This document shows, piece after piece, positions 1 through 63,053 of a DNA stretch of 64,000 bases. The notes beneath the pieces are model-generated. The model was not told the DNA's origin. It did not search any database and worked only from the letters and a program-made list of their open reading frames with translations. Numbering within the stretch: position 1 is the first letter of the stretch; every line of letters begins with the position of its first letter. The stretch is from Dehalococcoidia bacterium (lineage in GTDB: Bacteria; Chloroflexota; Dehalococcoidia; GIF9; AB-539-J10), in NCBI GenBank assembly GCA_021162545.1, contig JAGGYM010000053.1, positions 10,272-74,271 on the forward strand, written 5' to 3'. The translations under genes were made by a program, and so were the position numbers.

Positions 1-2198
1 GTGAAGGCTCCGGCACAGGACCTTCTGTGGGAATCCCCAGAGCGCTGCTGGTTTATGATTTCGCCCCGCTTCTCATAGGGTTTCTTAATGCCCTGGGCGT
101 TAGATGCGTCCTTTCCCACCAGTCCAACAAGGAAATTATAGAGAAGGCCATTGAGTTGGGCTATAGCGATAGCTGCTTTCCCCTCAAGCTGCTCCACGGA
201 CATGCGGCGATGCTGAGCGATACTGATTATATTCTCTACCCCTCCGCAATTCGGATGGGTGAAAAGGATGGCGATGAGGACCAGAAGTATGCCTGTCCTC
301 TCGTTCAGGCTTCTCCCTACATAATACGCCAGACAGTTGACCTGGGAGAACGGTTGTTAATCCCCACGCTGGACTTCAGTCTGGGCAACGCCGATGTAAT
401 CAAGAACCTCACGGATGTTGCCCGCAAGATGGGATTCAGCAGAAGTAAAGGCAAAAAGGCAGCTCTGGCGGGCATTGAAGCTCAGAGCAAATTTGCCTCA
501 GGCCAGGCAGCCCTTGGGGAAGAGTTGCTGCAGCAGCTGCGTCAAAGCGGCCAGCTGGGCGTGGTTCTCTTTGCCAGGTCATATATGTCACAGGACGCGG
601 GAGCCAACCTGGGCATAGCTGAAAAACTCGCCCAGCTCGGGGTGGTGCCCATACCCCTTGACTTCCTGCCCCTCACCTCGGTCAATCCCAAGAAATATTC
701 GGACCGCCCCTACTGGTATTATGAGGGCAAATACCTGGCCGGAGCTGAGATAACCGCATCGGACCCACATCTCTACGGATTGTCGTTGACGAACTTTGGC
801 TGCGGCCCGAACTCCTTTATCCTCCCAGAGGTGGAAGATATCATGGGAGATAAGCCCATGGGACAACTGGAAATCGACGAGCATGCAGCCGAGGCCGGCA
901 TTGTCACCCGCCTTGAAGCATTTGTCGATACTATCCAGGGATTTGCCCGTTCCTCCGGCCAGCACAAAGTCCAGCAGCGCAAGAATATTCGCAGAGAGGT
1001 ACCACTGCTCGAGAACTCGAAAAAGACCTTCCTCATACCTAATATGTCGGTGCATGCCGAGGTCATAGGTAGAGCCATGGAAGCCTATGGAGTCAAGACA
1101 ATCGTGCTCCCGGAGGATGATGAGCGCAATCTTCTCTACGCGGATAGGGTAACTACAGGTATGGAATGTCTGCCCTATCGCGTAACCCTGGGGGGATTCC
1201 TGAGGTTCTACTACGATAACGGAAATAGCGTGAAGAATGTGGAAGGCTTTATGGCCGGGGCATACGGCCCGTGCAGGTTTGGAAAGTATGCAGGAGAGCA
1301 GGTCAAGGCGCTCAGAGAACTTGGAATTGACCTTCCCTTGCGAACTACCATCTCCAATAATGGCTACAGCGACATGAACGTGGGCACTGACTTCATGCGC
1401 TTTGCCTGGAAGTGCTGCGTTGCCGCAGACTACCTGGAGAGGTTGCTCTGGCGAGCGCGCCCTTATGAAAAACAGGCGGGCGCAGCTGACGCGCTGTTCG
1501 CTGAATACAGCGACAGAATTGCCCATCACATTCCCCGCAAGGAGAAATTTGACAAGCTTCTGCACCAGGCAACCGCCGACTTCAAGGCCATTATAGACCC
1601 CGAAATCCCGAGAAGGCCGCTCGTTGGCATCAATGGAGAGTTCTTCCTGCGCTCCAACAAGTTCAGTAATAGCAACCTGGTGACGGTTTGTGAAAATGCA
1701 GGGCTGGAGATTACCGTCTCCCCCGTGGGAGAGTGGCTGAAGTATATCTCCCACAGATATGTTGAAGATGCCGTCAGAGACAGGAATTTCAAGAAGATGG
1801 TGCGTGGTTATATAAGAGAACGGATACAGTATCGCGATGAACACGCGGTAGCGCGGTGTTTCAGTGACCTCATTGACGAGGAAGAACCGCCAACAGGGCA
1901 TATACTGTCACTGACAGAACAATGGCTTTCTCCAAAATGCGGCAGCGAGGCGGTTCTCAGCATAGGGGCTGGAGTCGATTGCATGGAGAACCCCAAATTT
2001 GCCGGCACAATATCCGTCATGCCCCATGGATGCATGCCCGGGGGCATCGTGGCTGCGATGTCGGAAAAACTCAGTGCGCTGTATCAGAAGCCCTGGATCA
2101 ACCTTAGCTATGATGGCTTCATAGAGAGCAACAACCTCGAGAGAGTCAACAATTTCGCCGAGATAATCAGATTTTCCAGTAAGGCACAGGAAAAATGA
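1..2198 (+). CDS. CoA-substrate-specific enzyme activase-associated / 2-hydroxyacyl-CoA dehydratase D-component-like protein, 5'-truncated by the window edge (reading frame is open to base 3)
   Basis: Long ORF open at the window start. Composition and motifs (VGINGEFFLRSNKF..., Cys-rich C-terminus) resemble the HGD-D/activase-associated domain. The family assignment is from memory, not a search. Confidence 0.45.
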   Translation, partial: EGSGTGPSVGIPRALLVYDFAPLLIGFLNALGVRCVLSHQSNKEIIEKAIELGYSDSCFPLKLLHGHAAMLSDTDYILYPSAIRMGEKDGDEDQKYACPLVQASPYIIRQTVDLGERLLIPTLDFSLGNADVIKNLTDVARKMGFSRSKGKKAALAGIEAQSKFASGQAALGEELLQQLRQSGQLGVVLFARSYMSQDAGANLGIAEKLAQLGVVPIPLDFLPLTSVNPKKYSDRPYWYYEGKYLAGAEITASDPHLYGLSLTNFGCGPNSFILPEVEDIMGDKPMGQLEIDEHAAEAGIVTRLEAFVDTIQGFARSSGQHKVQQRKNIRREVPLLENSKKTFLIPNMSVHAEVIGRAMEAYGVKTIVLPEDDERNLLYADRVTTGMECLPYRVTLGGFLRFYYDNGNSVKNVEGFMAGAYGPCRFGKYAGEQVKALRELGIDLPLRTTISNNGYSDMNVGTDFMRFAWKCCVAADYLERLLWRARPYEKQAGAADALFAEYSDRIAHHIPRKEKFDKLLHQATADFKAIIDPEIPRRPLVGINGEFFLRSNKFSNSNLVTVCENAGLEITVSPVGEWLKYISHRYVEDAVRDRNFKKMVRGYIRERIQYRDEHAVARCFSDLIDEEEPPTGHILSLTEQWLSPKCGSEAVLSIGAGVDCMENPKFAGTISVMPHGCMPGGIVAAMSEKLSALYQKPWINLSYDGFIESNNLERVNNFAEIIRFSSKAQEK

Positions 2199-2475
2199 GG
2201 CCGGAAAAGCTTCACTCTGCCTACTTGAGCAGCAAAAGTGCAGTGGCGTTAGCATTTCCCCATCACATAGAATCATCTCGATAGTAAAACGCGACCCGGA
2301 AGATGCAGGGCGAACGGTGAAAAATCCGGCAGATAACAATTGTGAACGGCGTGCCCGTTACTGAAGCCGCGGTAATTTCACTGTTCCATGGTGGCCTGAG
2401 AAATGCCAGTGGTGCTACAATATCCATACCGTCGATGTTGATTTTTGAAGAGACAGGGAGGATTATAGACTAAAG

Positions 2476-12057: not shown

Positions 12058-12567
12058 GCGGTTGTAGCAGTAGAACCAGTATAAGCAATACCAGCTCATT
12101 TGCCAGTGCACGCTGGCTCAAAATACTGCCCATGCAAACCGGGATGGCGAAAAATCGAGGAATTTCCACCAACAGTCCTCATGTCCGTGTGGTCAGCCAG
12201 CACAGGTTGCGTGTCAAATCATTTAAGTAGGTAACCCAACCGGAGGTTGTTGCATAAAAATTCGAGGTCGTGTATAACATCTTCCATCGGAAAGGGCTTT
12301 CTAGCCTGATCCAGCGAATTTCTTCGCAACATGTATTTCTAGTCTCTGTGAATCGACGTCACGGGCAAGGGTTCTGGCAGGAAATATCTTGACATGGCTT
12401 TATTTGGTACGTGCGAGAAATTATATTGCATGCGGGCAGACAACCACATCCGTATTTCCATAAGGAACAGCGCCGCTGTGTGGGCCAGTCTGGAGGGTGT
12501 TCTCGGTCATCCTTCTCTCGTTCTTCAGATCGGCCTCTTCTGGTGAAGTCGAATTAGTAAACCTATC

Positions 12568-46703: not shown

Positions 46704-46759
46704 AGATTCTGTTCTTTCTGTAGAACCTTAACAATTGAATAGTGGAAGGAAGGTTTTTA

Positions 46760-48276
<1,517 letters not shown>

Positions 48277-53345: not shown

Positions 53346-53756
53346 TTAGAAATACAATCGCATGGCTCGGGGGGGGCAAGCTTTAACACATAATCCACAG
53401 ATAACGCATTTATTGTGGTCAAAGAGCACTTTCCTGGTCTTTGCTTCTAGGGAAAAAGCGCCGCTGGGACAAATGGCAACGCATGCTCCACAGTGGGTAC
53501 ATCTGGCTTCATCGCGTACCACATCCTGTGAAAGAGATTGAATTTTTACGCCCACGCTGGCAAGATACTGGATGCCCTTGTCATAGTTTTTCTGGGTGCC
53601 ACCCAATTCCATAATTAGCAACCCTTCTTCACCTGGCGACACTGAAGCTTTAAGAATGTTAAAGTTGAGGTTGAAATCTTTGACCAAGCGGTAAACAACC
53701 GGTTGCCCTGTCACGTGTGGGGGAAAATGAAGCACTATCCTTTTAGAGATATCCAT
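53346..53756 (-). CDS. NIL-domain plus 2x[4Fe-4S] ferredoxin protein (methanogen MA1822-type partner of the homocysteine-biosynthesis sulfurtransferase)
   Basis: 136 aa with an N-terminal NIL-like domain and a C-terminal CTHCGACVAICP…CVICGLCVKACP. It lies immediately downstream of the COG1900 gene. Confidence 0.7.
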   Translation of the reverse strand: MDISKRIVLHFPPHVTGQPVVYRLVKDFNLNFNILKASVSPGEEGLLIMELGGTQKNYDKGIQYLASVGVKIQSLSQDVVRDEARCTHCGACVAICPSGAFSLEAKTRKVLFDHNKCVICGLCVKACPPRAMRLYF

Positions 53757-53760
53757 TTTA

Positions 53761-54969
53761 TTATTCAGTTATGAGCCTTTCCTCAAGAGGCTTAAAGGTT
53801 ATATCTGACTCTATCCCTGGCAAATGAGCTACAGGCTCAGTAAGTAGAAATTCACCTCTCTCTATCCAATCTTTTAATATGCCAGCAATCTCTATTGCTT
53901 TGGGGTAGCTAGATAATGAAGCTGTAGGTACGTCTTTCCCTTGAACCTTTATATGACCGCTTTTAAGTTCTGCGTAGCTAATCTCCCCCAAAATTCCTGG
54001 CTTCCTTTGCGGATAAGTCTCGGAGAATTCGATGATGGGAGCAAAGATTTCATCGTCGGTTACTGTGGTGTAGCGTAAAATTTCCTCGGAGAGTACAGGT
54101 ATTGGGATTCCTATACCTGTACTTAGCGTGCAACCGTAGCCAAACATGCTCGTTCCGACCAACCATTCTGGTTTCATCTGCTTCAAATCACCGATGAGCG
54201 ATAAAGAGCCTGCTCCCTCTCTAGGCACACCATTTTCTCCTCGGGGAACATTGGGGTTGTGTTGTGTGCCGTGCCAGGCAACATAGCCAATGCCCCCACC
54301 AATGAACACTTTTGTTCCCACACCTATGGATTTATAATAAGGGTCATTTAGCAAAGGGGAAAGTTGCCCTGAAGTGCTGTAATGTGCGTTGCCCAAATTT
54401 GGTTTTAACACTCCCATATAAGTGTAGAGCATCCTGTCTGATGAGTTAACAGCAACCTCATAGTTTTGGTAAGCATTTCTCACATTAAACAGGATAGCAT
54501 CATTGATATCCTTGAGGTTGATCCAACTTTCTAGTTTTCTCCTGGGATAACAATCTGTGCCATAAGCAGTAGCTACCAGTCTGATATCTTTACCTGCCAC
54601 CAGTTCTTCAATAACATGTCCGCCGCCATAATTAAACTCGCCGGGGTGAAATTTGTTTCTGGGGTCATCATCGGGCAGCGCGTTAGCTCCAAGAAAGACA
54701 TCTGCAGCAGCCAGTCCAGTGTACACCGGAACATCATTGAGATAAGCCTTGCCACCACCGAGCTTTATCCTGGGTTGAGAATGGCCAAAATTGAGGAATG
54801 CACCGGAGGAGCACATAGGACTAAAAGTGCCGGTAGTCACCACATCAATTTCCTCCGCTGCCTTATGCAGACCTTTTTCCCTGGCAATATCAATTACTTC
54901 CTCAGCAGTGACTACTACCGCCTTCCCTTTTTTTATTTTCTCGTTAATTTCAACGATTGTTTTTAACAT
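53761..54969 (-). CDS. COG1900/DUF39 family protein (L-aspartate-semialdehyde sulfurtransferase-type homocysteine biosynthesis enzyme, MA1821-like)
   Basis: 402 aa. The family was recognised from sequence memory (…GTFSPMCSSGAFLNFGH…). It has the canonical pairing with the NIL-ferredoxin gene. Confidence 0.7.
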   Translation of the reverse strand: MLKTIVEINEKIKKGKAVVVTAEEVIDIAREKGLHKAAEEIDVVTTGTFSPMCSSGAFLNFGHSQPRIKLGGGKAYLNDVPVYTGLAAADVFLGANALPDDDPRNKFHPGEFNYGGGHVIEELVAGKDIRLVATAYGTDCYPRRKLESWINLKDINDAILFNVRNAYQNYEVAVNSSDRMLYTYMGVLKPNLGNAHYSTSGQLSPLLNDPYYKSIGVGTKVFIGGGIGYVAWHGTQHNPNVPRGENGVPREGAGSLSLIGDLKQMKPEWLVGTSMFGYGCTLSTGIGIPIPVLSEEILRYTTVTDDEIFAPIIEFSETYPQRKPGILGEISYAELKSGHIKVQGKDVPTASLSSYPKAIEIAGILKDWIERGEFLLTEPVAHLPGIESDITFKPLEERLITE

Positions 54970-55020
54970 GGCTCTTTAGCAACCTACCTACTATTCTGGA
55001 CCATCCACATAAAGAATCCC

Positions 55021-55794
55021 TTATCTCAATAATTCCATAGCCAATTTGGCTGCCTTTCTGCCAGATAATAGCATGCCACCGAATACTGGGCCCATCCTGG
55101 GCGAACCGAAGACAGCGTTTGCTGCCATGCCGACGATTATCAATCCTGGGTAAATTTCCCTGGTGTTCTCGGCAATTTTACTTTCCGCTACTTCAACCCA
55201 CATTGGTTTTTCGCCGATTACATCCCCTGTTGCAGTCCTCAATTTTCCTCCCATCTTCCTGGTAACCATATGGCAAATTTCACAATCGTGTCCTGTGGCG
55301 TCTATTACTAATCTAGACCTTATAGCCAAAGGGTCAACATGTAAATTCGCTAAAAGAACAGGGCTCCAGTTTAATACTAATCCACTAACCTTATCAGCTT
55401 CCCTGATAACTATATCCTCAATACCGATCAGATTAAATACCTTTGCTCCAGCCCTTATGGTAAGAGAGCAAAGGGTTGAGGCCAGTTCTACAGCGCTAGC
55501 GACATAGTACCCCCCTTCGTAGGCAGTACTGGCAACGCCAAATTCATCCAGGATTTCCTTAGCCGCATCCTGTACTACAATCTTGTTGAACATCATGCCA
55601 CCTCCCCAGATACCACCCCCTGCGCTTAATTTTCTTTCAAATATGGAAGTCTTGATTCCTCCTTTTGCCAGATAATAAGCAGCAGTCATTCCTGCCGGGC
55701 CAGCACCCACAATAGCCACATCAAGCTCCATTGCCTCAAGCAGGTCTTTTATGTAGCTTTCTGTTATAGCCCGTGAAACAATAACTTCATCCAT
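55021..55794 (-). CDS. thi4: thiazole synthase Thi4 (archaeal-type, sulfide-dependent thiamine thiazole synthase / ribose-1,5-bisphosphate isomerase family)
   Basis: 257 aa. [18 protein letters not shown]…[12 protein letters not shown] are Thi4 motifs. Confidence 0.85.
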
Positions 55795-55948
55795 TCGAGG
55801 AGTACCTGAATTGAAATAGCTTAAATAGTATACACTTCCTGGAGGTTAAATTTCCAGTTACTGTGCTGGCCTGATTCTCTAAGCCCATTCTATCTCTAGT
55901 ATTTTGTTCTATTGTCTTTATCTTAAAACAAGTAGTTTTTTACCTGGG

Positions 55949-56872
55949 TCACTTCTTTTTTGAAACCTGCTCTGTCTTATAAGGGTTAACATGAACCATA
56001 ACATCCTGTATATGCTCAAGTGTGTCCATAAGCCTACTTCTTACTTCGACAGCTACTCCATGACCTTGCTCCACAGTGAGTTTGCTATTCACAGCTATCT
56101 CCACATCAATGGTGAATCTAGAACCACGACGATGCACCTTGAGGTCATCGATTGACTTAATTCCTCCAATCTCCAGGGCAGTAGTTCTAATCTGGTCCAA
56201 AATTGCTGAACTTGGCCTTTCATCCATCAGTACCCCAATATTCGGGCGAAGAAGAGTAAGGGAAACCCTGATTATAAAAGCGGAAACAATAAGGCCAGCT
56301 ACAGGGTCTAAATACTGATAACCTAATCTGGCTCCGAGTATACCGGCTAAAACAGCCACCGAGGAGTAAGCATCCGAACGGTGATCCCATGCAGTGGCAA
56401 TAACAGCAGGGCTATTATTCCTTTTCCCCACTTTGAGTGTATAACGAAACAGACCTTCTTTTACAACTATGGAGGCAATGGCTGCTACCAGAGCAATCGT
56501 AGCTGGAGTTTCAAAATGCTTGTGGACAATGAGGTGAACGGCGGAAATGCCAACAAAGACTCCGGTAGCAAGAATTATGAGGGCCACTATAAAAGCAGCG
56601 ATAGTCTCTGCATTGGCATGCCCGTAAGGATGGCTTTCATCTGCTGGTTTTTCTCCAATTCGTAGGCTTACATAAACAGTTCCTGTGGCCAGACAATCGG
56701 ATATAGAGTCAATGGCATCGGCTATCATAGCATAGCTGAAGCCAAGTATACCGGCGAGCATCTTGAAAATTGCTAGCACTATGTTGACGCCAAGCCCTAC
56801 TAAGGTGCAGGTTTTAGAATCATAAAAATTAACTCCTGACATAAATCCTCGTCTTCTATCTCCAGCTAACAA
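55949..56872 (-). CDS. cation diffusion facilitator family metal efflux transporter
   Basis: 307 aa, six TM segments, CDF signatures (…ADAIDSISD…HGHANAE…) and a C-terminal cytoplasmic domain. Confidence 0.85.
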   Translation of the reverse strand: MLAGDRRRGFMSGVNFYDSKTCTLVGLGVNIVLAIFKMLAGILGFSYAMIADAIDSISDCLATGTVYVSLRIGEKPADESHPYGHANAETIAAFIVALIILATGVFVGISAVHLIVHKHFETPATIALVAAIASIVVKEGLFRYTLKVGKRNNSPAVIATAWDHRSDAYSSVAVLAGILGARLGYQYLDPVAGLIVSAFIIRVSLTLLRPNIGVLMDERPSSAILDQIRTTALEIGGIKSIDDLKVHRRGSRFTIDVEIAVNSKLTVEQGHGVAVEVRSRLMDTLEHIQDVMVHVNPYKTEQVSKKK

Positions 56873-56874
56873 GC

Positions 56875-57045
56875 CTAGATTGCCTGGGCAAAAGTTTGTC
56901 TATTGAGCGGGTGGAGCTTATGCGCCTCCCACTGTTCCTTGGGGAGGACACAGATGTTGCCTTTCTCTTCTATTTTCACTTTCTCATCCGTTATCTTGAT
57001 TACCGGAGAGCAGAGCCCTTCTCCGCACAGGCTTACGATTTTCAT
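56875..57045 (-). CDS. small Cys-rich hypothetical protein (56 aa: MKIVSLCGEGLCSPVIKITDEKVKIEEKGNICVLPKEQWEAHKLHPLNRQTFAQAI)
   Basis: It is not in the ORF track because it is under 60 aa. It has a strong RBS (AAGGAGG) 8 nt upstream of the ATG. Its stop is 2 nt from the CDF start, placing it in an operon between the permease and the CDF gene. It contains C7, C12, C33 and a H..H pair. Confidence 0.35.
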   Translation of the reverse strand: MKIVSLCGEGLCSPVIKITDEKVKIEEKGNICVLPKEQWEAHKLHPLNRQTFAQAI

Positions 57046-57115
57046 GTTTTTAGCCTCCTTGCGTTTGAAAATTTAGAACCTTCTTTTATAGCCCCATCCG
57101 CAATCAGGAGTAATT

Positions 57116-58134
57116 CTATATTAACGAGAAGGAATACCCTAAAACCAGGGACATTATGCTAATGCATGCCAGATAAATAAGCAAGATTTTGCCACTGAAT
57201 TCCTTTTTCAGAACAAGGATAGTTCCCCAACTGGTAATCGGGCCTACCAATAGCAGAACCAGTCCGGCGCCGATATTCATTCCTTGCGACAGAAAGGCCT
57301 TAACCAGAGGAGGACTGGCTGTGGAGCAGACATACATCAAAAGTCCAAGAACAAGGCTGAATAAATACCCCAATCCACCGCTGAAATAGGTGCCAACAAA
57401 TTTCCCTACAGGGGTAACTGTCACTACCAGAGCTGCCAGAGCAAGTCCTAGAAGAATCTCAGGGCCAATTTCCTTCACCATATCCGCAAAACCATATCTG
57501 AAAGCTGAATTCACTCTGTCCTTAATCCTAATGCTCCGGGTGCATTGCTCTGCAGTAGCATATTCTTCGGCTTCCCTCTCAAAAATCGCTTGGCAATGAG
57601 GAGAACAAAAATAATAACTTTTGCCCCCATATTCTGTTTTTAATCCCTTCGCTGTATCCACATTCATTCCACAAACAGGGTCTATAGCAAGTTCTGCCCT
57701 TTGAAGAGGACTCGCCAAGTCCTTGGGCTCAGATTGAATGAGGTTGCCAACAATACCCATGATTGACCCCATCAAGATCGCGGCAAATAATATAAATACG
57801 GTGAACTTTATACCCAGCAGGGCATAACAAACCAGAAGAGCGCTTATCGAGGTGGCTGGTGTCGCTACCAAGAAAGCTAAAACTGGACCTAGCCTTGCCC
57901 CTTTCTGGTGTAGACCTACCGCTACTGGGAGAGACCCTATACAGCAAAGGGGAAGAACTGTCCCTGCAAGGGTGGACTAGAGGAGAGGCTTTATTCCTCG
58001 CCCACCAAGGTGTCTTTCCACCAATCCTCCAGGAACAAACTCATGGATCAAGCCGCTCAGGAGCAAGCCTATTGCAAGGAAGGGCAATACCTCGATTAAA
58101 TAATCCCTAAACGCGATAAAAAACTGGGCTATCA
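57116..58134 (-). pseudogene. ArsP-like COG0701 permease with an embedded TRASH/YHS metal-binding domain; the N-terminal ~90 codons are disrupted by two compensating frameshifts (pseudogene, or homopolymer-type assembly error). The intact C-terminal ORF is 57116..57871
   Basis: The conserved N-terminus (…DYLIEVLP | LLAIGLLLSGLIHEFVPGGLVERHLGGRGIKPLL | SSPPLQGTVLPLCCIGSLPVAVGL…) is encoded in three successive frame segments. The gene frame has stops TAG at ~58069-58071 and TAA at ~57992-57994. The middle 32 codons lie in the -1 frame. The TRASH motif is DPVCGMNVDTAKGLKTEYGGKSYYFCSPHCQAIFE. A TTG start overlaps the acr3 stop (TTGA). Confidence 0.5.
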
Positions 58135-59235
58135 ACCACTTGCTCCTTCGCCGTCACCATCGGCGTATTGAATTCGTGGCTGGTAGAAGAAACCTCTTGT
58201 CTTCTTACAGAGCCATACCAGAAAGAGCATGAAGGGGACCTCTGTCAGAACGCCAACAACTGTAGCCAGCACTGCTCCTGAAGAGAGGCCAAATACGGTC
58301 GTTGCTACAGCAACGGCTACCTCAAAGTGATTGCTTCCAGCGATTATTGCTGTTGGTGCCGCATCCTCATAGGAGAGATGAATAGGTTTAGAGATGAGGT
58401 AAGTGAGGGCAAAGACAAAAAGGATATTCAGGAATATCCCGATGGCAATCATGCCCACGGATGCCGGAAGTTCTGTGATTATGTCCCCCTGCAGACTGAA
58501 TAGGATCAGTAGAGTGATGAGGAGAGTGATTATCGACACGGTCCGCAGGGGAGGAATAAGTTTTGTTTTAAACCATCCTATTCCCCTCCGCTTAATCGTC
58601 TGAGTTCTGGTGAAGTAGCCACATAAGAGAGGAAGGCCAATATAGACTGCCACCGAAGAAACGATCGCTTTCCAAGGTATAGCAATTCCCGAAATTCCCA
58701 AGAGAAACTGGACCAGCGGGGCATAGAAGAGCACCATTGAGAGCGAGTTTATGGCAGTCATTACTAGCGTGTGCGCCATATTTCCTTTTGCCAGATAACT
58801 CCACATCAAAACCATAGCAGTGCATGGAGCAACGCCAAGAAGAATCATTCCAGCCCGGTATTCCTGAGCAATCTCGGGTGATAAGAAGCTCTTGAAAACT
58901 ACATCCATGAACAGCCAGGCGAAGAAAGTCATAGTAAAGGGTTTTATCGCCCAGTTGGCAACAAGAGTGGTGATTATTGGCTTTGGGGCCCTGGCCGCTT
59001 TTTTCACCTGACTGAAATCTATCTGCACCATTATGGGATAGATCATCATGAACAAACAAATAGCAATTGGGATGGAGACATTGGCAACAGTTAGCCCACC
59101 TAATACGTCGGAGATTTTGGGAAAAACCTTCCCTATCCCTATCCCGGCACCAATACAAAGTGCTACCCACAGGCTCAGGTATTTCTCCCAAACTCCAAGT
59201 CTGCTTTCCCTTTCTTGGGCCATATCGCGTCGCAT
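58132..59235 (-). CDS. acr3: arsenite efflux transporter, ACR3 family
   Basis: 367 aa, 10 TM segments, the ACR3 signature (…GVAPCTAMVLMWSYLAKG…). It lies 4 nt downstream of arsM. Confidence 0.9.
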   Translation of the reverse strand: MRRDMAQERESRLGVWEKYLSLWVALCIGAGIGIGKVFPKISDVLGGLTVANVSIPIAICLFMMIYPIMVQIDFSQVKKAARAPKPIITTLVANWAIKPFTMTFFAWLFMDVVFKSFLSPEIAQEYRAGMILLGVAPCTAMVLMWSYLAKGNMAHTLVMTAINSLSMVLFYAPLVQFLLGISGIAIPWKAIVSSVAVYIGLPLLCGYFTRTQTIKRRGIGWFKTKLIPPLRTVSIITLLITLLILFSLQGDIITELPASVGMIAIGIFLNILFVFALTYLISKPIHLSYEDAAPTAIIAGSNHFEVAVAVATTVFGLSSGAVLATVVGVLTEVPFMLFLVWLCKKTRGFFYQPRIQYADGDGEGASG

Positions 59236-59239
59236 TTTC

Positions 59240-60000
59240 TCACTTGTACGCCTTAACTGTAATGTTCAAAAGCTTTTCTATAGCTCCGTTTCCCTTACTC
59301 TCTATATAGAATTCTCTACTGGACACCATCATCACATCCTCGAACCTGGCCTTTCTTACCTCGCCCAAGTATTCTTGCTGCTCTAAAGCCCCGGCGATAC
59401 ATCCTGTCCAGGCATCAAGATCATTCTTTATCTCATCGGGGGAGTTCTCTCTGGGAAACTATATCGGAAACTATGAGCCTTCCACCGGGCTTCAGAACCC
59501 GGTAAGCCTCCCGGAAGGCTTTAGATTTATCTGGTGATAGATTGATAACGCAGTTACTGCTAACGACGCCCACAGATTCATCCTCGATGGGAAGTTTCTC
59601 AATTTCCGCCAGGCGAAACTCTACATTTTGGTAGCCATAACTCCTAGCGATACCTTTTGCCTTGTCCCCCATTTCCTCTGTCATATCAACTCCGATAACC
59701 CTGCCGGTGGGGCCAACCTTATTAGCTGCCAAGAATACATCTACGCCTGCCCCTGACCTTAAATCCAGGACTACCTCGCCCTGTTTTATGTCTGCTGTAG
59801 CGGTGGGATTACCACATCCCAAGCCTATAACCGCCTCTTCTGGAATTTGTTCCAAATCTTCTCTCAAGTATCCGATAGCCTGAGCTTGGGGCAGAAGGTT
59901 GGCTCCGCAAGCACAACTTGGGCAACAGTTTTGTTGGTCTTGCTTAGCTATCTGAGCGTATCTCCTCTTCACCACTTCCCTGATTTTCTTCTCTTCCATA
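59240..60000 (-). pseudogene. arsM: arsenite S-adenosylmethionine methyltransferase ArsM with an apparent +1 frameshift at a C5 homopolymer (coding-strand CCCCC = plus-strand GGGGG at 59438-59442). The N-terminal 189-codon ORF (59433..60000) is intact and the conserved C-terminal tail continues in the +1 frame to 59240
   Basis: The N-terminus has CCPSCAC and a SAM-MTase domain (VLDLRSGAGVDV…VVSSNCVINLSPDKSKAF…LKPGGRLIVSDIV). After …RELP, the frame with DEIKNDLDAWTGCIAGALEQQEYL… (conserved GC(I/V)AGA Cys) is open. Removing one C restores ELPDEIK. Confidence 0.6.
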
Positions 60001-60106
60001 ATTGACCTCCTTGCATTTGCGCCGCAACAGCACTCGTTAACTAAAGCAGCGCACACAATATCCTGCGGGCTGTAAAAAAACCAGTAAGTAAATTGCCATC
60101 TAAATT

Positions 60107-60379
60107 TCAGCCACCACTGACGATAAACTGAATAGTGAGTTCATCATTCTTCTTCACAGGGCTATCCAATTTCAGTGTATATGAATTCGTCGATTTAATA
60201 AAAATCTGGTAAAGGCCTCTCAACTCCTTTTGCCTGACACTAATTTCTTTCTTAATGCCAGGAAATCGCGCCTCCAAATTGTCAAGGCACTGACCAACAT
60301 TTCGGCCTTCTGTCTCAACCAATCCACGGCCATCGGTCAAGTATTTCAGATGCCAGGCAATTTTTACCTTGATACTCAT
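60107..60379 (-). CDS. MoaD/ThiS-family sulfur-carrier protein (C-terminal Gly-Gly)
   Basis: 90 aa ending …IQFIVSGG with a beta-grasp-like pattern. It is adjacent to a MoeB/ThiF-family gene and to AOR. Confidence 0.65.
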   Translation of the reverse strand: MSIKVKIAWHLKYLTDGRGLVETEGRNVGQCLDNLEARFPGIKKEISVRQKELRGLYQIFIKSTNSYTLKLDSPVKKNDELTIQFIVSGG

Positions 60380-62211
60380 TATGACTCATATGATTCAGGT
60401 GAAAATCGTTTTCCCCTTCGTCTAGCCATTTTTTTCTGTGGGGCCAACTCCTCTATCCCGAGTTCCCGAATCTTCTCCAGTTTTGGAATTCCCGTTTTCC
60501 TACTCCAGTCTCGAAGCTCGTAATATTCGTCCAGCATTTTCTCAAAATCCTCCAGCGGGACCATCCAGCCCGTATCCTCCAGGGGCTCAGTAAATCTCTT
60601 GGGCAATGTGTCATCCTTTCTAGAGAGCCCTTCACGAACGTTAAATAGTCGGGTTACATTATAGGCTCTCTCACCCAGAGCCATGAACCATTTTTCATCG
60701 GCATCCCATCCAAGGGAAGTAAGCGCCTCTGTCAACCACTCTGCCGAATATGGTGCACAATCGCATGTTATAAGGCTCCACGCAGCAGCGTTGTAATCCT
60801 GCAATCGCTTCACCAATGCGGCTTTCCCCACAGTGGTGAACGGGTCTAGCGTTTTGCCAAAAACTTCCGCACCAGTTGGATACGCCCTCTGATGACAAGC
60901 GCCTCTATCAGCTGTGGCATAAGCAAGGGCCATCCCTCTCGACCCTCTGGGATCATATCCAGCAACTTCAAGTCCCTTGACATGAACAGCAAAATCCCCT
61001 GTTCTCTTCATAAGTTTGGCCGAAGCCGCTCTTACACCTTCGGCCAGAAGATCCCCTATCCCCTCCCTGGTAGTTATCATTTTCACTAACTCTACCTGTT
61101 TTTTCGAATCTCCAAAAGGAATCTTATAATTTATCAGGCCTTTCTCTGAGCATTCCATAGCAAAGGCAATGACATCTCCCAAGGACATCACGTCAATACC
61201 ATATTCATTAGCCAACCTTATGGATTCTAATACTGTGCTCAAATCGCCCTGCCCACAGTTTGCTCCAAGCAGCACCATAGGCTCATATGATACTGTAGCT
61301 TCAGCGCCTGCAAAAGGACCTTCATTCGCCCTCACTATATTGCCACAGCCAATGGGGCACAAATGACAGCTAGACTTTTGTATAACATTTGGCCGCAATG
61401 CAGCTTCATTAATATTTTTAACCTGCTCAAATGAACCCGCAGTAAAGTTCCGGGTCGGTACAATGTGCGCTTCGTTACACATATCAATATTGGGAGTGAA
61501 CATGCCCCCACTGAAAAACTCTCTGAGGTCCTTATTATCAGCAAGGCGTCTAAAGTGTTTCTTCTGGAGTTCCTTTGTTTTCTCAGGAATATCGATTTTC
61601 CCGTTGCTCTTAATGGCAATGGCCTTCAGATTCTTTGACCCCATTACAGCGCCAATGCCACAACGCCCTATCGCTCCAGGGCGCCCACTCCCGGTCACAT
61701 TGTTCAATACACATGCAAATTTGACCAGATTTTCCCCGCCAGGACCAATCGTTGCCACACTAAAACCTGGATAATATTCGCTTGTCTCCGTAGTACTCTT
61801 CCCTTTAAGAGTGGAACTAACGTCTTCCAGCATTACATTGTGCCCCTCTACCTTCAGAACAACCAAATTTGGACTTTTCCCTTCAATAATAATTCCCAAA
61901 TACCCTGCCTTCCTTAGTTCATACGAAAAATTGCCGCCGGAAAAAGAATCAGCGTATGCTCCTGTCAAGGGTGACTTCGTCACCACCGCATAACGCGTGC
62001 AACTGGGCATGATACCTGTTAAGGGGCCAGCTATAAACATGAGTTTATTATCAGGCCCCAATGGGTCAGTCTTAGCCCTTAACTCTTTATAGAGATAATA
62101 AGCGCCTAACCCCTTTCCACCGACATACTTATGCATTAACTCAGGTGATATTAGCTCCTCCTTCACCACCCCCTCTGACAGGTTAACCCTTAATAACTTG
62201 TACTTTTCCAT
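60379..62211 (-). CDS. aor: tungsten-containing aldehyde:ferredoxin oxidoreductase (AOR family)
   Basis: About 610 aa from MEKYKLLRVNLSEG… The AOR N-terminal domain and Cys ligands for a [4Fe-4S] cluster are present (…CHLCPIGCG…). Confidence 0.85.
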   Translation of the reverse strand: MEKYKLLRVNLSEGVVKEELISPELMHKYVGGKGLGAYYLYKELRAKTDPLGPDNKLMFIAGPLTGIMPSCTRYAVVTKSPLTGAYADSFSGGNFSYELRKAGYLGIIIEGKSPNLVVLKVEGHNVMLEDVSSTLKGKSTTETSEYYPGFSVATIGPGGENLVKFACVLNNVTGSGRPGAIGRCGIGAVMGSKNLKAIAIKSNGKIDIPEKTKELQKKHFRRLADNKDLREFFSGGMFTPNIDMCNEAHIVPTRNFTAGSFEQVKNINEAALRPNVIQKSSCHLCPIGCGNIVRANEGPFAGAEATVSYEPMVLLGANCGQGDLSTVLESIRLANEYGIDVMSLGDVIAFAMECSEKGLINYKIPFGDSKKQVELVKMITTREGIGDLLAEGVRAASAKLMKRTGDFAVHVKGLEVAGYDPRGSRGMALAYATADRGACHQRAYPTGAEVFGKTLDPFTTVGKAALVKRLQDYNAAAWSLITCDCAPYSAEWLTEALTSLGWDADEKWFMALGERAYNVTRLFNVREGLSRKDDTLPKRFTEPLEDTGWMVPLEDFEKMLDEYYELRDWSRKTGIPKLEKIRELGIEELAPQKKMARRRGKRFSPESYES

Positions 62212-62258
62212 TGCATTTCGCCTCCTGTAATTAGCTAAATTTGGCCTCCACACACTCA

Positions 62259-63053
62259 TCAAGACTCACTGCCTCCACAAACCCTGCATTCAGGATTCTT
62301 GGCTAAATTGGCTATGGTGAACTCCATCCCTTCACCATCAATATATAACATCCTGTTGGTGAGCAAATTACCAAAACCGGTAAGAAGTTTAACTACTTCC
62401 ATAACCTGTAGAGTAGCTATCAACGCCGGAGCCATACCGAAAACCGGAATTACCCCCTTGTTTTTCGGAGCTTCAGGGAAAATACAGGCAAAGCAGGCGG
62501 TTTCCCCAGGAATTATGGTGGTAACTTCACCAATGAGCCCATTCACTCCTCCATGGATGAAAGGGATTCTTTCTGCCACGCATGCTGAGTTAAGAATAAA
62601 TCTGGTTTCGAAATTATCCATCCCGTCTATTACCACATCTGCTCTCATAATAATGCCCCGCACATTTCCCTGGGTAATTCTCTCAAGAAGCGGACTAATC
62701 TTTATCGACGGATTCAATTTGGCCAGTTTCCTTGCTGCCGAGAACGGTTTCTCCTCTCCGATATCCTCATCCCAATAAAGAATTTGTCGGTTTAAATTAG
62801 AGAGCTCCACGCGGTCACAATCCACCAGAGTAATATGTCCCATGCCAGCACAGGCTAAATATATAGAAGCGCTGGTTCCCAATCCCCCAAGTCCAGCTAC
62901 CACTACATGGGAGCGCTTAAGCTTCTCTTGCCCCTGCCACCCAAAACTTGGGTATAATATTTGCCGCCTGTATCTGCTGAGATCACTATTTGTAAGCACA
63001 TTTCCCTTCGCTCTTTTCATTAAATTCTTACTTTGCCTCCTTTGAACTATCAA
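62259..63053 (-). CDS. MoeB/ThiF/HesA-family E1-like adenylyltransferase (start possibly at the internal Met near 63020)
   Basis: RYRRQIL…VVVAGLGGLGTSASIYLACAGMG…LVDCDRVELSNLNRQ and a C-terminal CxxC…CRVCGG zinc motif. Confidence 0.8.
   Translation of the reverse strand: MIVQRRQSKNLMKRAKGNVLTNSDLSRYRRQILYPSFGWQGQEKLKRSHVVVAGLGGLGTSASIYLACAGMGHITLVDCDRVELSNLNRQILYWDEDIGEEKPFSAARKLAKLNPSIKISPLLERITQGNVRGIIMRADVVIDGMDNFETRFILNSACVAERIPFIHGGVNGLIGEVTTIIPGETACFACIFPEAPKNKGVIPVFGMAPALIATLQVMEVVKLLTGFGNLLTNRMLYIDGEGMEFTIANLAKNPECRVCGGSES

Follow-up and report, generated by a model that had tools for sequence, protein, structure and literature searches.

The DNA analysed here is a 64,000-nucleotide (nt) stretch from a Dehalococcoidia bacterium (GenBank assembly GCA_021162545.1, contig JAGGYM010000053.1, positions 10,272 to 74,271), hereafter called the window and numbered from its first letter, and the gene in question encodes a permease of the ArsP_1/COG0701 family. 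The gene was found at 57116-58135 on the minus strand, where 339 codons lie in one frame that starts at a TTG codon (58135), reads LIAQFFIAFRDYLIEVLPFL... and continues with no frame change through to a terminal TAG at 57116-57118, the residue at which homologues also terminate. The start overlaps the TGA stop of the acr3 gene by 4 nt (TTGA), and an AAGGAG sequence was seen by eye 7 nt to its 5′ side. Frame analysis revealed a sole internal stop, a TAG at 57977-57979 located between GIKPLL and STLAGTVLPLCC..., and no in-frame TAA. This amber stop divides the gene into a 52-codon open reading frame (ORF; 57977-58135) and 286 remaining codons. The N-terminal fragment (52 codons, 57980-58135, minus strand) holds only the first transmembrane segment (TM1) and ends as TM2 begins, while a 251-codon ORF (57116-57871, minus strand) starts at the first TTG past the amber codon, without TM1-TM3 and with no Shine-Dalgarno-like sequence visible by eye before its start. 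The 251-codon ORF matched Pfam ArsP_1 with 69.7 bits (cut-off 32.3) and Pfam YHS with 62.6 bits (cut-off 30.3). With a tyrosine restored at the internal stop, the 339-residue protein matched ArsP_1 (PF03773) with 124.4 bits against a gathering score of 32.3, in a single uninterrupted match from profile position 4 to 292 (of 294). Topology was estimated by hydropathy alone, which suggested four plus four transmembrane segments on either side of a roughly 85-residue hydrophilic loop. An AlphaFold2 model of P0001, the nearest intact orthologue (94% amino acid identity; 94.6% nucleotide identity, L001), was too poor for use (44-sequence alignment, all at least 73% identical; mean predicted local distance difference test score 47.6, predicted template modelling score 0.34), and a sequence search of the PDB found no solved relative.

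Alignment of the DNA at 57900-58140 by MAFFT with three orthologous loci (L001 and L002, from JGI metagenomes, and L003, from NCBI GCA_964465885.1; 94-95% DNA identity) was gap-free, and codon 53 differed only as TAC in these orthologues and TAG in the window (57977-57979, minus strand). The residue at this position was Tyr in 118 of 120 homologues and Lys in the other two, and it was Tyr in all seven of the intact 339-residue members compared from the window's own 90% cluster. Hydropathy and alignment placed codon 53 at the start of TM2, 11 residues ahead of the vicinal Cys64-Cys65 pair (57941-57946, minus strand) of an LP(I/L)CCxGSLP motif, in which C64 was present in 119 and C65 in all of the 120 homologues. 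A single C-to-G change converted the Tyr53 codon TAC to the amber codon TAG, and translation from the acr3-coupled TTG would then end at 52 residues, after TM1. Because the motif lies downstream of the amber stop, C64-C65 would be absent from any product; since the stop precedes both cysteine motifs of the family as well as the YHS domain, no functional permease would be made. The stop sits at a codon that is a sense codon in the orthologues, TAG is a normal terminator in this DNA, and the stop is reproducible, all of which a nonsense pseudogene requires. It was concluded that the locus is very probably a recently inactivated nonsense pseudogene of a Dehalococcoidia-type ArsP_1 permease.

The original prediction, made from the letters of the window, had recognised the 251-codon ORF as an ArsP/COG0701-type permease and had placed the N-terminal part of the protein upstream of it, beyond a stop, and on both counts it was right. 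It had explained the disruption of the 5′ region, which is real, by compensating frameshifts, namely a 1-nt deletion near 58080 and a 1-nt insertion near 57985 that would put about 30 codons out of frame, spread the N-terminal region over three frame segments and create both a TAG and a TAA in the gene frame. Only the TAG was recovered, and as a single codon. Frame analysis yielded one frame from the TTG at 58135 to 57116, the gap-free alignment with L001, L002 and L003 showed neither indel, and the Tyr-restored protein matched ArsP_1 in a single stretch, so that one substitution replaces the pair of frameshifts, a model which now appears scarcely credible and which probably came from a by-eye reading of the wrong frame. 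A related suspicion was that the lesion, whether TAG or indel pair, is a sequencing or assembly artefact in an intact gene, and in its favour an indel of a typical error type (a homopolymer change from C4 to C5) is present two genes upstream, in arsM, with acr3 between. The TAG, however, is a substitution and not an indel, and it recurs. An exact look-up of the Acr3 protein returned five more contigs (L084, L085 and L088 from JGI 3300016457, L086 from ENA ERZ23499370 and L087 from ENA ERZ23499350; three samples), all of them with a split permease and a split arsM; they were 99.96% identical to the window, and both the TAG string and the C5 run of arsM were present in every one. Two of these contigs, L085 and L086, share private single-nucleotide polymorphisms at 57196 and 57298 and so represent a second haplotype, also TAG-bearing. 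An exact-match scan of metagenome contigs for a 35-nt string containing the TAG gave no match, the five contigs having come through the protein-identity look-up. The exact sequence of the 52-residue fragment was found as a separate gene on five contigs, four from JGI and one from ENA, that of a 218-residue permease fragment in JGI and Logan, and a 274-residue NCBI protein, MCD6568118.1 ('MAG: permease [Dehalococcoidia bacterium]', from a metagenome-assembled genome, MAG), is identical to codons 66-339 of the window gene and likewise begins past the stop. Dehalococcoidia MAGs were the best genome matches, with shared synteny, in agreement with the Dehalococcoidia label of this protein. Recurrence in five contigs, three samples, two haplotypes, the assemblies of two resources and an NCBI MAG call indicates that the TAG is a real allele and not a sequencing artefact, which leaves an assembly error highly improbable; the amber mutation is fixed in the sampled population.

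If the allele is real, the gene could still be expressed through its stop or behind it. Were the TAG decoded, whether through pyrrolysine insertion, a suppressor tRNA or programmed read-through, the full-length permease would result; the 286 codons past the TAG are still open and largely conserved, the ratio of nonsynonymous to synonymous substitution rates (dN/dS) against L001 is 0.33 for the permease (0.22 for the neighbouring Thi4 gene), and tyrosine is among the residues that can be inserted at UAG by near-cognate decoding. Against this, among the window's 50 longest non-overlapping ORFs there are 14 (28%) that end in TAG, the permease itself included, the codon for the conserved Tyr53 is TAC in all orthologues and TAG in none, and a tRNA scan of the window found tRNA-Arg and tRNA-His only, with no tRNA-CUA. 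The base following the amber stop is T, which favours efficient termination in E. coli, and several co-located genes are degraded as well. Pyrrolysine and other recoding was rejected on these grounds and is considered very unlikely. The other possibility is a functional truncated or split protein, in which the C-terminal 218-274 residues are made from an internal start (TM4 or later, the YHS domain and the second half), alone or together with the 52-residue fragment. Gene callers do predict such products (with starts giving 218 and 274 residues), members of the family are built as a two-fold repeat, and the part of the Pfam profile that the N-terminal fragment matches is its second half. The candidate internal starts, however, have no Shine-Dalgarno-like sequence before them as judged by eye, TM1-TM3 and the invariant CC motif of TM2 would be missing, and the second haplotype loses the 3′ end too. 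Invariant residues of the C-terminal half have also been struck by private substitutions: relative to the seven intact cluster members the window permease has, the stop aside, 10 private amino acid changes, all downstream of the stop, and four of them (F116L, L124S, R310K and G314S) fall at sites whose conservation among 117 homologues is 97% or more, where P0001 shows no and P0002 two private deviations. A split but working protein is accordingly judged highly unlikely, and the reading as a nonsense pseudogene is preferred. A scan for other same-frame ORF pairs split by one stop produced only adjacent genes or antisense ORFs, such as a TGA-separated pair of 143 and 437 residues (588-2339, minus strand) that had no Pfam match and runs antisense to a genuine DUF2229 gene.

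Damage to the permease was also seen in close relatives of the window copy. In L093 and L094, from two ENA samples, the permease breaks off at codon 158 (window position about 57662), inside the YHS domain and in an L001-type context, and the same interrupted product is represented by JGI P0134; the foreign DNA (L093:4473-4822, L094:4473-4569) opens with an ORF giving weak, sub-threshold matches to HTH_23, HTH_28 and LZ_Tnp_IS481, and the insertion therefore looks like an insertion sequence (IS). In L003 (GCA_964465885.1) the 296-residue permease P0038 has lost the YHS domain through an exact 129-nt in-frame deletion corresponding to window positions 57553-57681, bounded by TGCTA microhomologies (L003:670-680), and the remaining permease frame is open. 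The second-haplotype contigs L085 and L086 leave the window sequence at 57185, inside the 3′ end of the permease, and end 53-160 nt later; their foreign tails (L085:6052-6211, L086:6052-6104) start CGTGTCAAATCATTTAA..., and the 160-nt tail contains a 38-residue ORF fragment with no Pfam match. The only similarity to this tail was a 31-nt stretch with three mismatches at window 12210-12240, in a 510-nt ORF-poor spacer after fpg. The tail might represent the terminus of a repeat or of a mobile element. The permease is thus disrupted independently in close relatives, by an IS-like insertion, by the 129-nt deletion of the YHS domain and at a foreign junction. Two distant Dehalococcoidia-type copies also appeared damaged: at L011:1887-2997 the second half lies in another frame after the YHS domain, which may be an error, the MAG having 5x coverage, and at L010:3947-4891 a short, degenerate version of the YHS domain is present (DPVCGTHHPGSSHC).

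The YHS/TRASH domain, at 57551-57685 (minus strand), comprises residues 151-195 and lies in the central loop that connects TM4 with TM5. It scored 61.9-62.6 bits against Pfam YHS (PF04945; cut-off 30.3) and has the cysteine ligand motif DPVCGM ... C..HC, so the original prediction of a TRASH/YHS domain set between the permease halves was confirmed; the TRASH_HVO_1752_C model scored below its threshold (21.5-22.4 against 27). To the question of whether such permeases occur elsewhere, which had been raised at the same time, the answer is positive: within the Dehalococcoidia subfamily, both ArsP_1 and YHS were found in 119 of the 120 best 90% clusters (of 1,517 matches with E ≤ 1e-10). For the wider family, the best 150 representatives at 50% identity were taken from 8,430 matches with E ≤ 1e-3 (530 at E ≤ 1e-30); 127 of them were full-length, and a pattern match detected a YHS-like DPxCGM motif in only 2. 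The description of the domain as an unusual insertion therefore holds for the wider family but not for the Dehalococcoidia subfamily; a central YHS domain is rare in the former and the rule in the latter, which is large. Elsewhere in the permease family, in a distant branch of Actinomycetota/Acidobacteriota, between one and four copies of YHS were fused independently to the C-terminus.

As predicted originally, the permease lies between acr3 and a small Cys-rich ORF followed by a CDF transporter gene. The acr3 gene (58132-59235, minus strand; 367 codons) is intact and encodes an arsenite efflux protein (NCBIfam TIGR00832, 356.6 bits, cut-off 282.8). Beyond it lies an arsM pseudogene (59240-59999, minus strand) with one C added to a C4 run (C5 at 59438-59442), a frameshift that was judged against the intact orthologues in L089 and L090 and is present too in L084-L088; once its frame is corrected, ArsM shares 87% identity with its L089 counterpart and has a Gly-to-Arg change in its S-adenosylmethionine-binding motif (DLGSGAG to DLRSGAG). 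On the other side, the small ORF (56875-57045, minus strand; 56 residues) is a degenerate copy of a conserved 51-residue, four-cysteine family, with the changes C13S, L42H, K45H, I46P and E50Q and the loss of its normal stop. This family comprises 308 clusters annotated as 'hypothetical', with no Pfam or NCBIfam model, and C7, C12, C13, C32, W39, L42, K45 and E50 are invariant in 100 members of 51-residue length. Members adjoin the permease or the CDF gene (L089:234-389, L004:4546-4701, L092:5093-5248), and Dehalococcoidia are among the few source names listed for them. The CDF cation efflux gene (55949-56872, minus strand; Pfam Cation_efflux and ZT_dimer, TIGR01297 246.5 bits) is intact, with a likely ATG start at 56842 and 91% identity to the L001 orthologue. 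It appears from these lesions that the arsM-acr3-permease cluster is decaying as a block, only acr3 and the CDF gene being intact. Scans of 55800-60500 for promoters and terminators gave results at or below shuffle expectation, and an Rfam search of the window matched only a 16S rRNA gene and two tRNAs, with no match near the permease locus. The 16S rRNA gene is a complete bacterial one (46759-48274, plus strand; SSU_rRNA_bacteria, 1484.5 bits) and apparently unlinked, as Rfam gave no 23S or 5S match within the window. The permease block is enclosed by sulfur-carrier genes (60107-63053 and 53346-55794, minus strand) that include ThiF, AOR, Thi4, HcyBio and NIL-ferredoxin genes and one for a ThiS/SAMP-like 90-residue protein, a conserved neighbourhood that also surrounds the permease in other MAGs of Dehalococcoidia.

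The surroundings of the permease were also compared among relatives, where it stood beside acr3/arsR, in some cases with arsM, in 6 of 14 loci and near CDF, CutA1, Rrf2 or the four-cysteine protein in most. It directly follows acr3 in the window, L003, L005, L089 and L090 and lies beside arsR-acr3 in L010, and it has no adjoining ars gene in L001, L002, L091, L092, L093 and L094. The loci L089 and L090 (about 78% amino acid identity) retain the arsR-arsM-acr3-permease array intact, and acr3 and the permease overlap there by the same 4 nt. In L001 and L002 the permease is intact and arsM and acr3 are missing, with about 62 nt of the 3′ end of acr3 kept, a remnant that points to a deletion at arsM-acr3. 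The mixture of arsenic and metal resistance genes noted in the original prediction is therefore present, with arsM, acr3 and the CDF gene, but is no local oddity, being a recurrent and conserved neighbourhood. Two differences in gene content were recorded alongside: arsM-acr3 varies in presence between genomes that are 90-95% identical (window 58199-60103 against L001:9876-9938), and an Rrf2 gene stands between ThiF and AOR in L001 (6967-7737) but not in the window (about 62232-62242), with a 76-residue truncation of it in L093 and L094.

In intact relatives the protein would consist of two four-helix halves, each with a cysteine motif (LPLCCxGSLP in TM2 and MYxCSTASxP in TM6), joined by a cytoplasmic loop bearing the YHS domain, which would serve as a substrate-binding or sensing module. 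The intact permease would most likely act as a thiol-lined exporter, with a soft metal or metalloid as its substrate, as suggested by its matches to the curated families SO_0444 and SaoE, fitness and complementation results obtained with SO_0444 (PMC3219624), its adjacency to acr3 and its CDF and CutA1 neighbours, and an arsenical substrate is somewhat more likely than copper or zinc. Several observations weigh against the interpretation of the locus as a pseudogene of such an exporter. Low-level read-through of the TAG may occur. The dN/dS of the permease, at only 0.33, gives no strong signal of long neutral drift, from which it follows that the inactivation was recent, and the numbers behind the excess of private changes are small, so that this excess is only suggestive of relaxed constraint. 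The NCBIfam scores fall under the equivalog cut-offs (226 against 300 for SO_0444, 130 against 325 for SaoE), and L001, L091 and L092 hold the permease with no ars gene nearby.

The permease subfamily is annotated in databases and experimentally uncharacterised, and a literature search found no paper describing YHS-bearing ArsP_1 permeases or a subfamily with a 51-residue four-cysteine partner; the window feature itself is an ordinary, recent nonsense pseudogene. A speculative and rather unlikely extension of this reading is that the Dehalococcoidia ArsP_1 permeases with a YHS domain in the central loop form an export module of their own for soft metals or metalloids, and that their repeated knock-out reflects selection against the transporter in some sediments. 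Such a module would often be accompanied by the 51-residue protein, a CDF transporter and CutA1, its substrate or regulation might differ from those of both ArsP and SO_0444, and the independent lesions of a single species-level clade, namely the amber codon, the IS-like insertion, the YHS deletion and the 3′ truncation, would not be neutral decay. On a more practical level, the 52-, 218-, 251- and 274-residue calls in public databases should be joined and flagged as one pseudogene, and arsM should be flagged too. Cold-seep surveys have reported abundant arsM, arsP and acr3, with Dehalococcoidia among the arsenic-related taxa (PMC10060404), and dead copies such as these would inflate the arsM and arsP counts of arsenic-gene surveys of this kind. 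The locus offers an example of modular decay in uncultured sediment Dehalococcoidia, in which arsenite efflux by Acr3 is kept and arsM and the ArsP-like exporter are lost, and the intact subfamily (ArsP_1 with an internal YHS domain and the 51-residue four-cysteine partner) is a reasonable target for transport assays.

Among characterised systems, ArsP of Campylobacter jejuni (TCDB Organo-Arsenical Exporter), which exports trivalent methylarsenic, MAs(III), and shares an operon with acr3 (PMC6205960), resembles the permease in its Pfam ArsP_1 domain, its multiple transmembrane segments and its cysteine-containing motifs, and arsM lies upstream of the permease in L089 and L090 and, frameshifted, in the window. 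Unlike ArsP, however, the family studied here has a central YHS domain and a vicinal CC in TM2, many of its members do not lie beside ars genes, the window copy is a pseudogene, and transport of MAs(III) by the subfamily is only hypothetical. The best curated match was the SO_0444 Cu/Zn efflux family (NF033936; 226 bits, E = 7.6e-67, residues 13-336; 225.9 bits for P0001 and 207.1 for P0038, the equivalog cut-off of 300 not being reached), whose Shewanella oneidensis member is required for growth under zinc and copper stress (PMC3219624); the CDF and CutA1 metal genes near the permease recall this system. The second-best was SaoE (NF040736; Clostridioides difficile CD2367; 130.5 bits, far from the cut-off of 325), an ArsP-family protein that has been proposed to export heavy metals or organometals (bioRxiv 10.1101/2022.07.06.499078). 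Both SO_0444 and SaoE have a CSC hallmark at their most conserved motif and are classed in TCDB as ArsP organoarsenical exporters (bioRxiv 10.1101/2022.07.06.499078), whereas the CSC/USC sequence is replaced here by P-(I/L)-C-C-x-G. The permease further differs from SO_0444 in its internal YHS domain and its linkage to acr3, arsR and arsM in several genomes, and from SaoE in that no SAO locus genes lie near it and that the YHS insertion is absent from SaoE by its description. The domain itself is the same small cysteine-based metal-binding module (PF04945) that is fused to copper P-type ATPases and to a mycobacterial adenylyl cyclase, and in the Mycobacterium phlei cyclase it is proposed to act as a copper sensor (PMC4626032); in contrast to those fusions, the module is not terminal here, as a secondary permease carries it as an insertion in its central loop.

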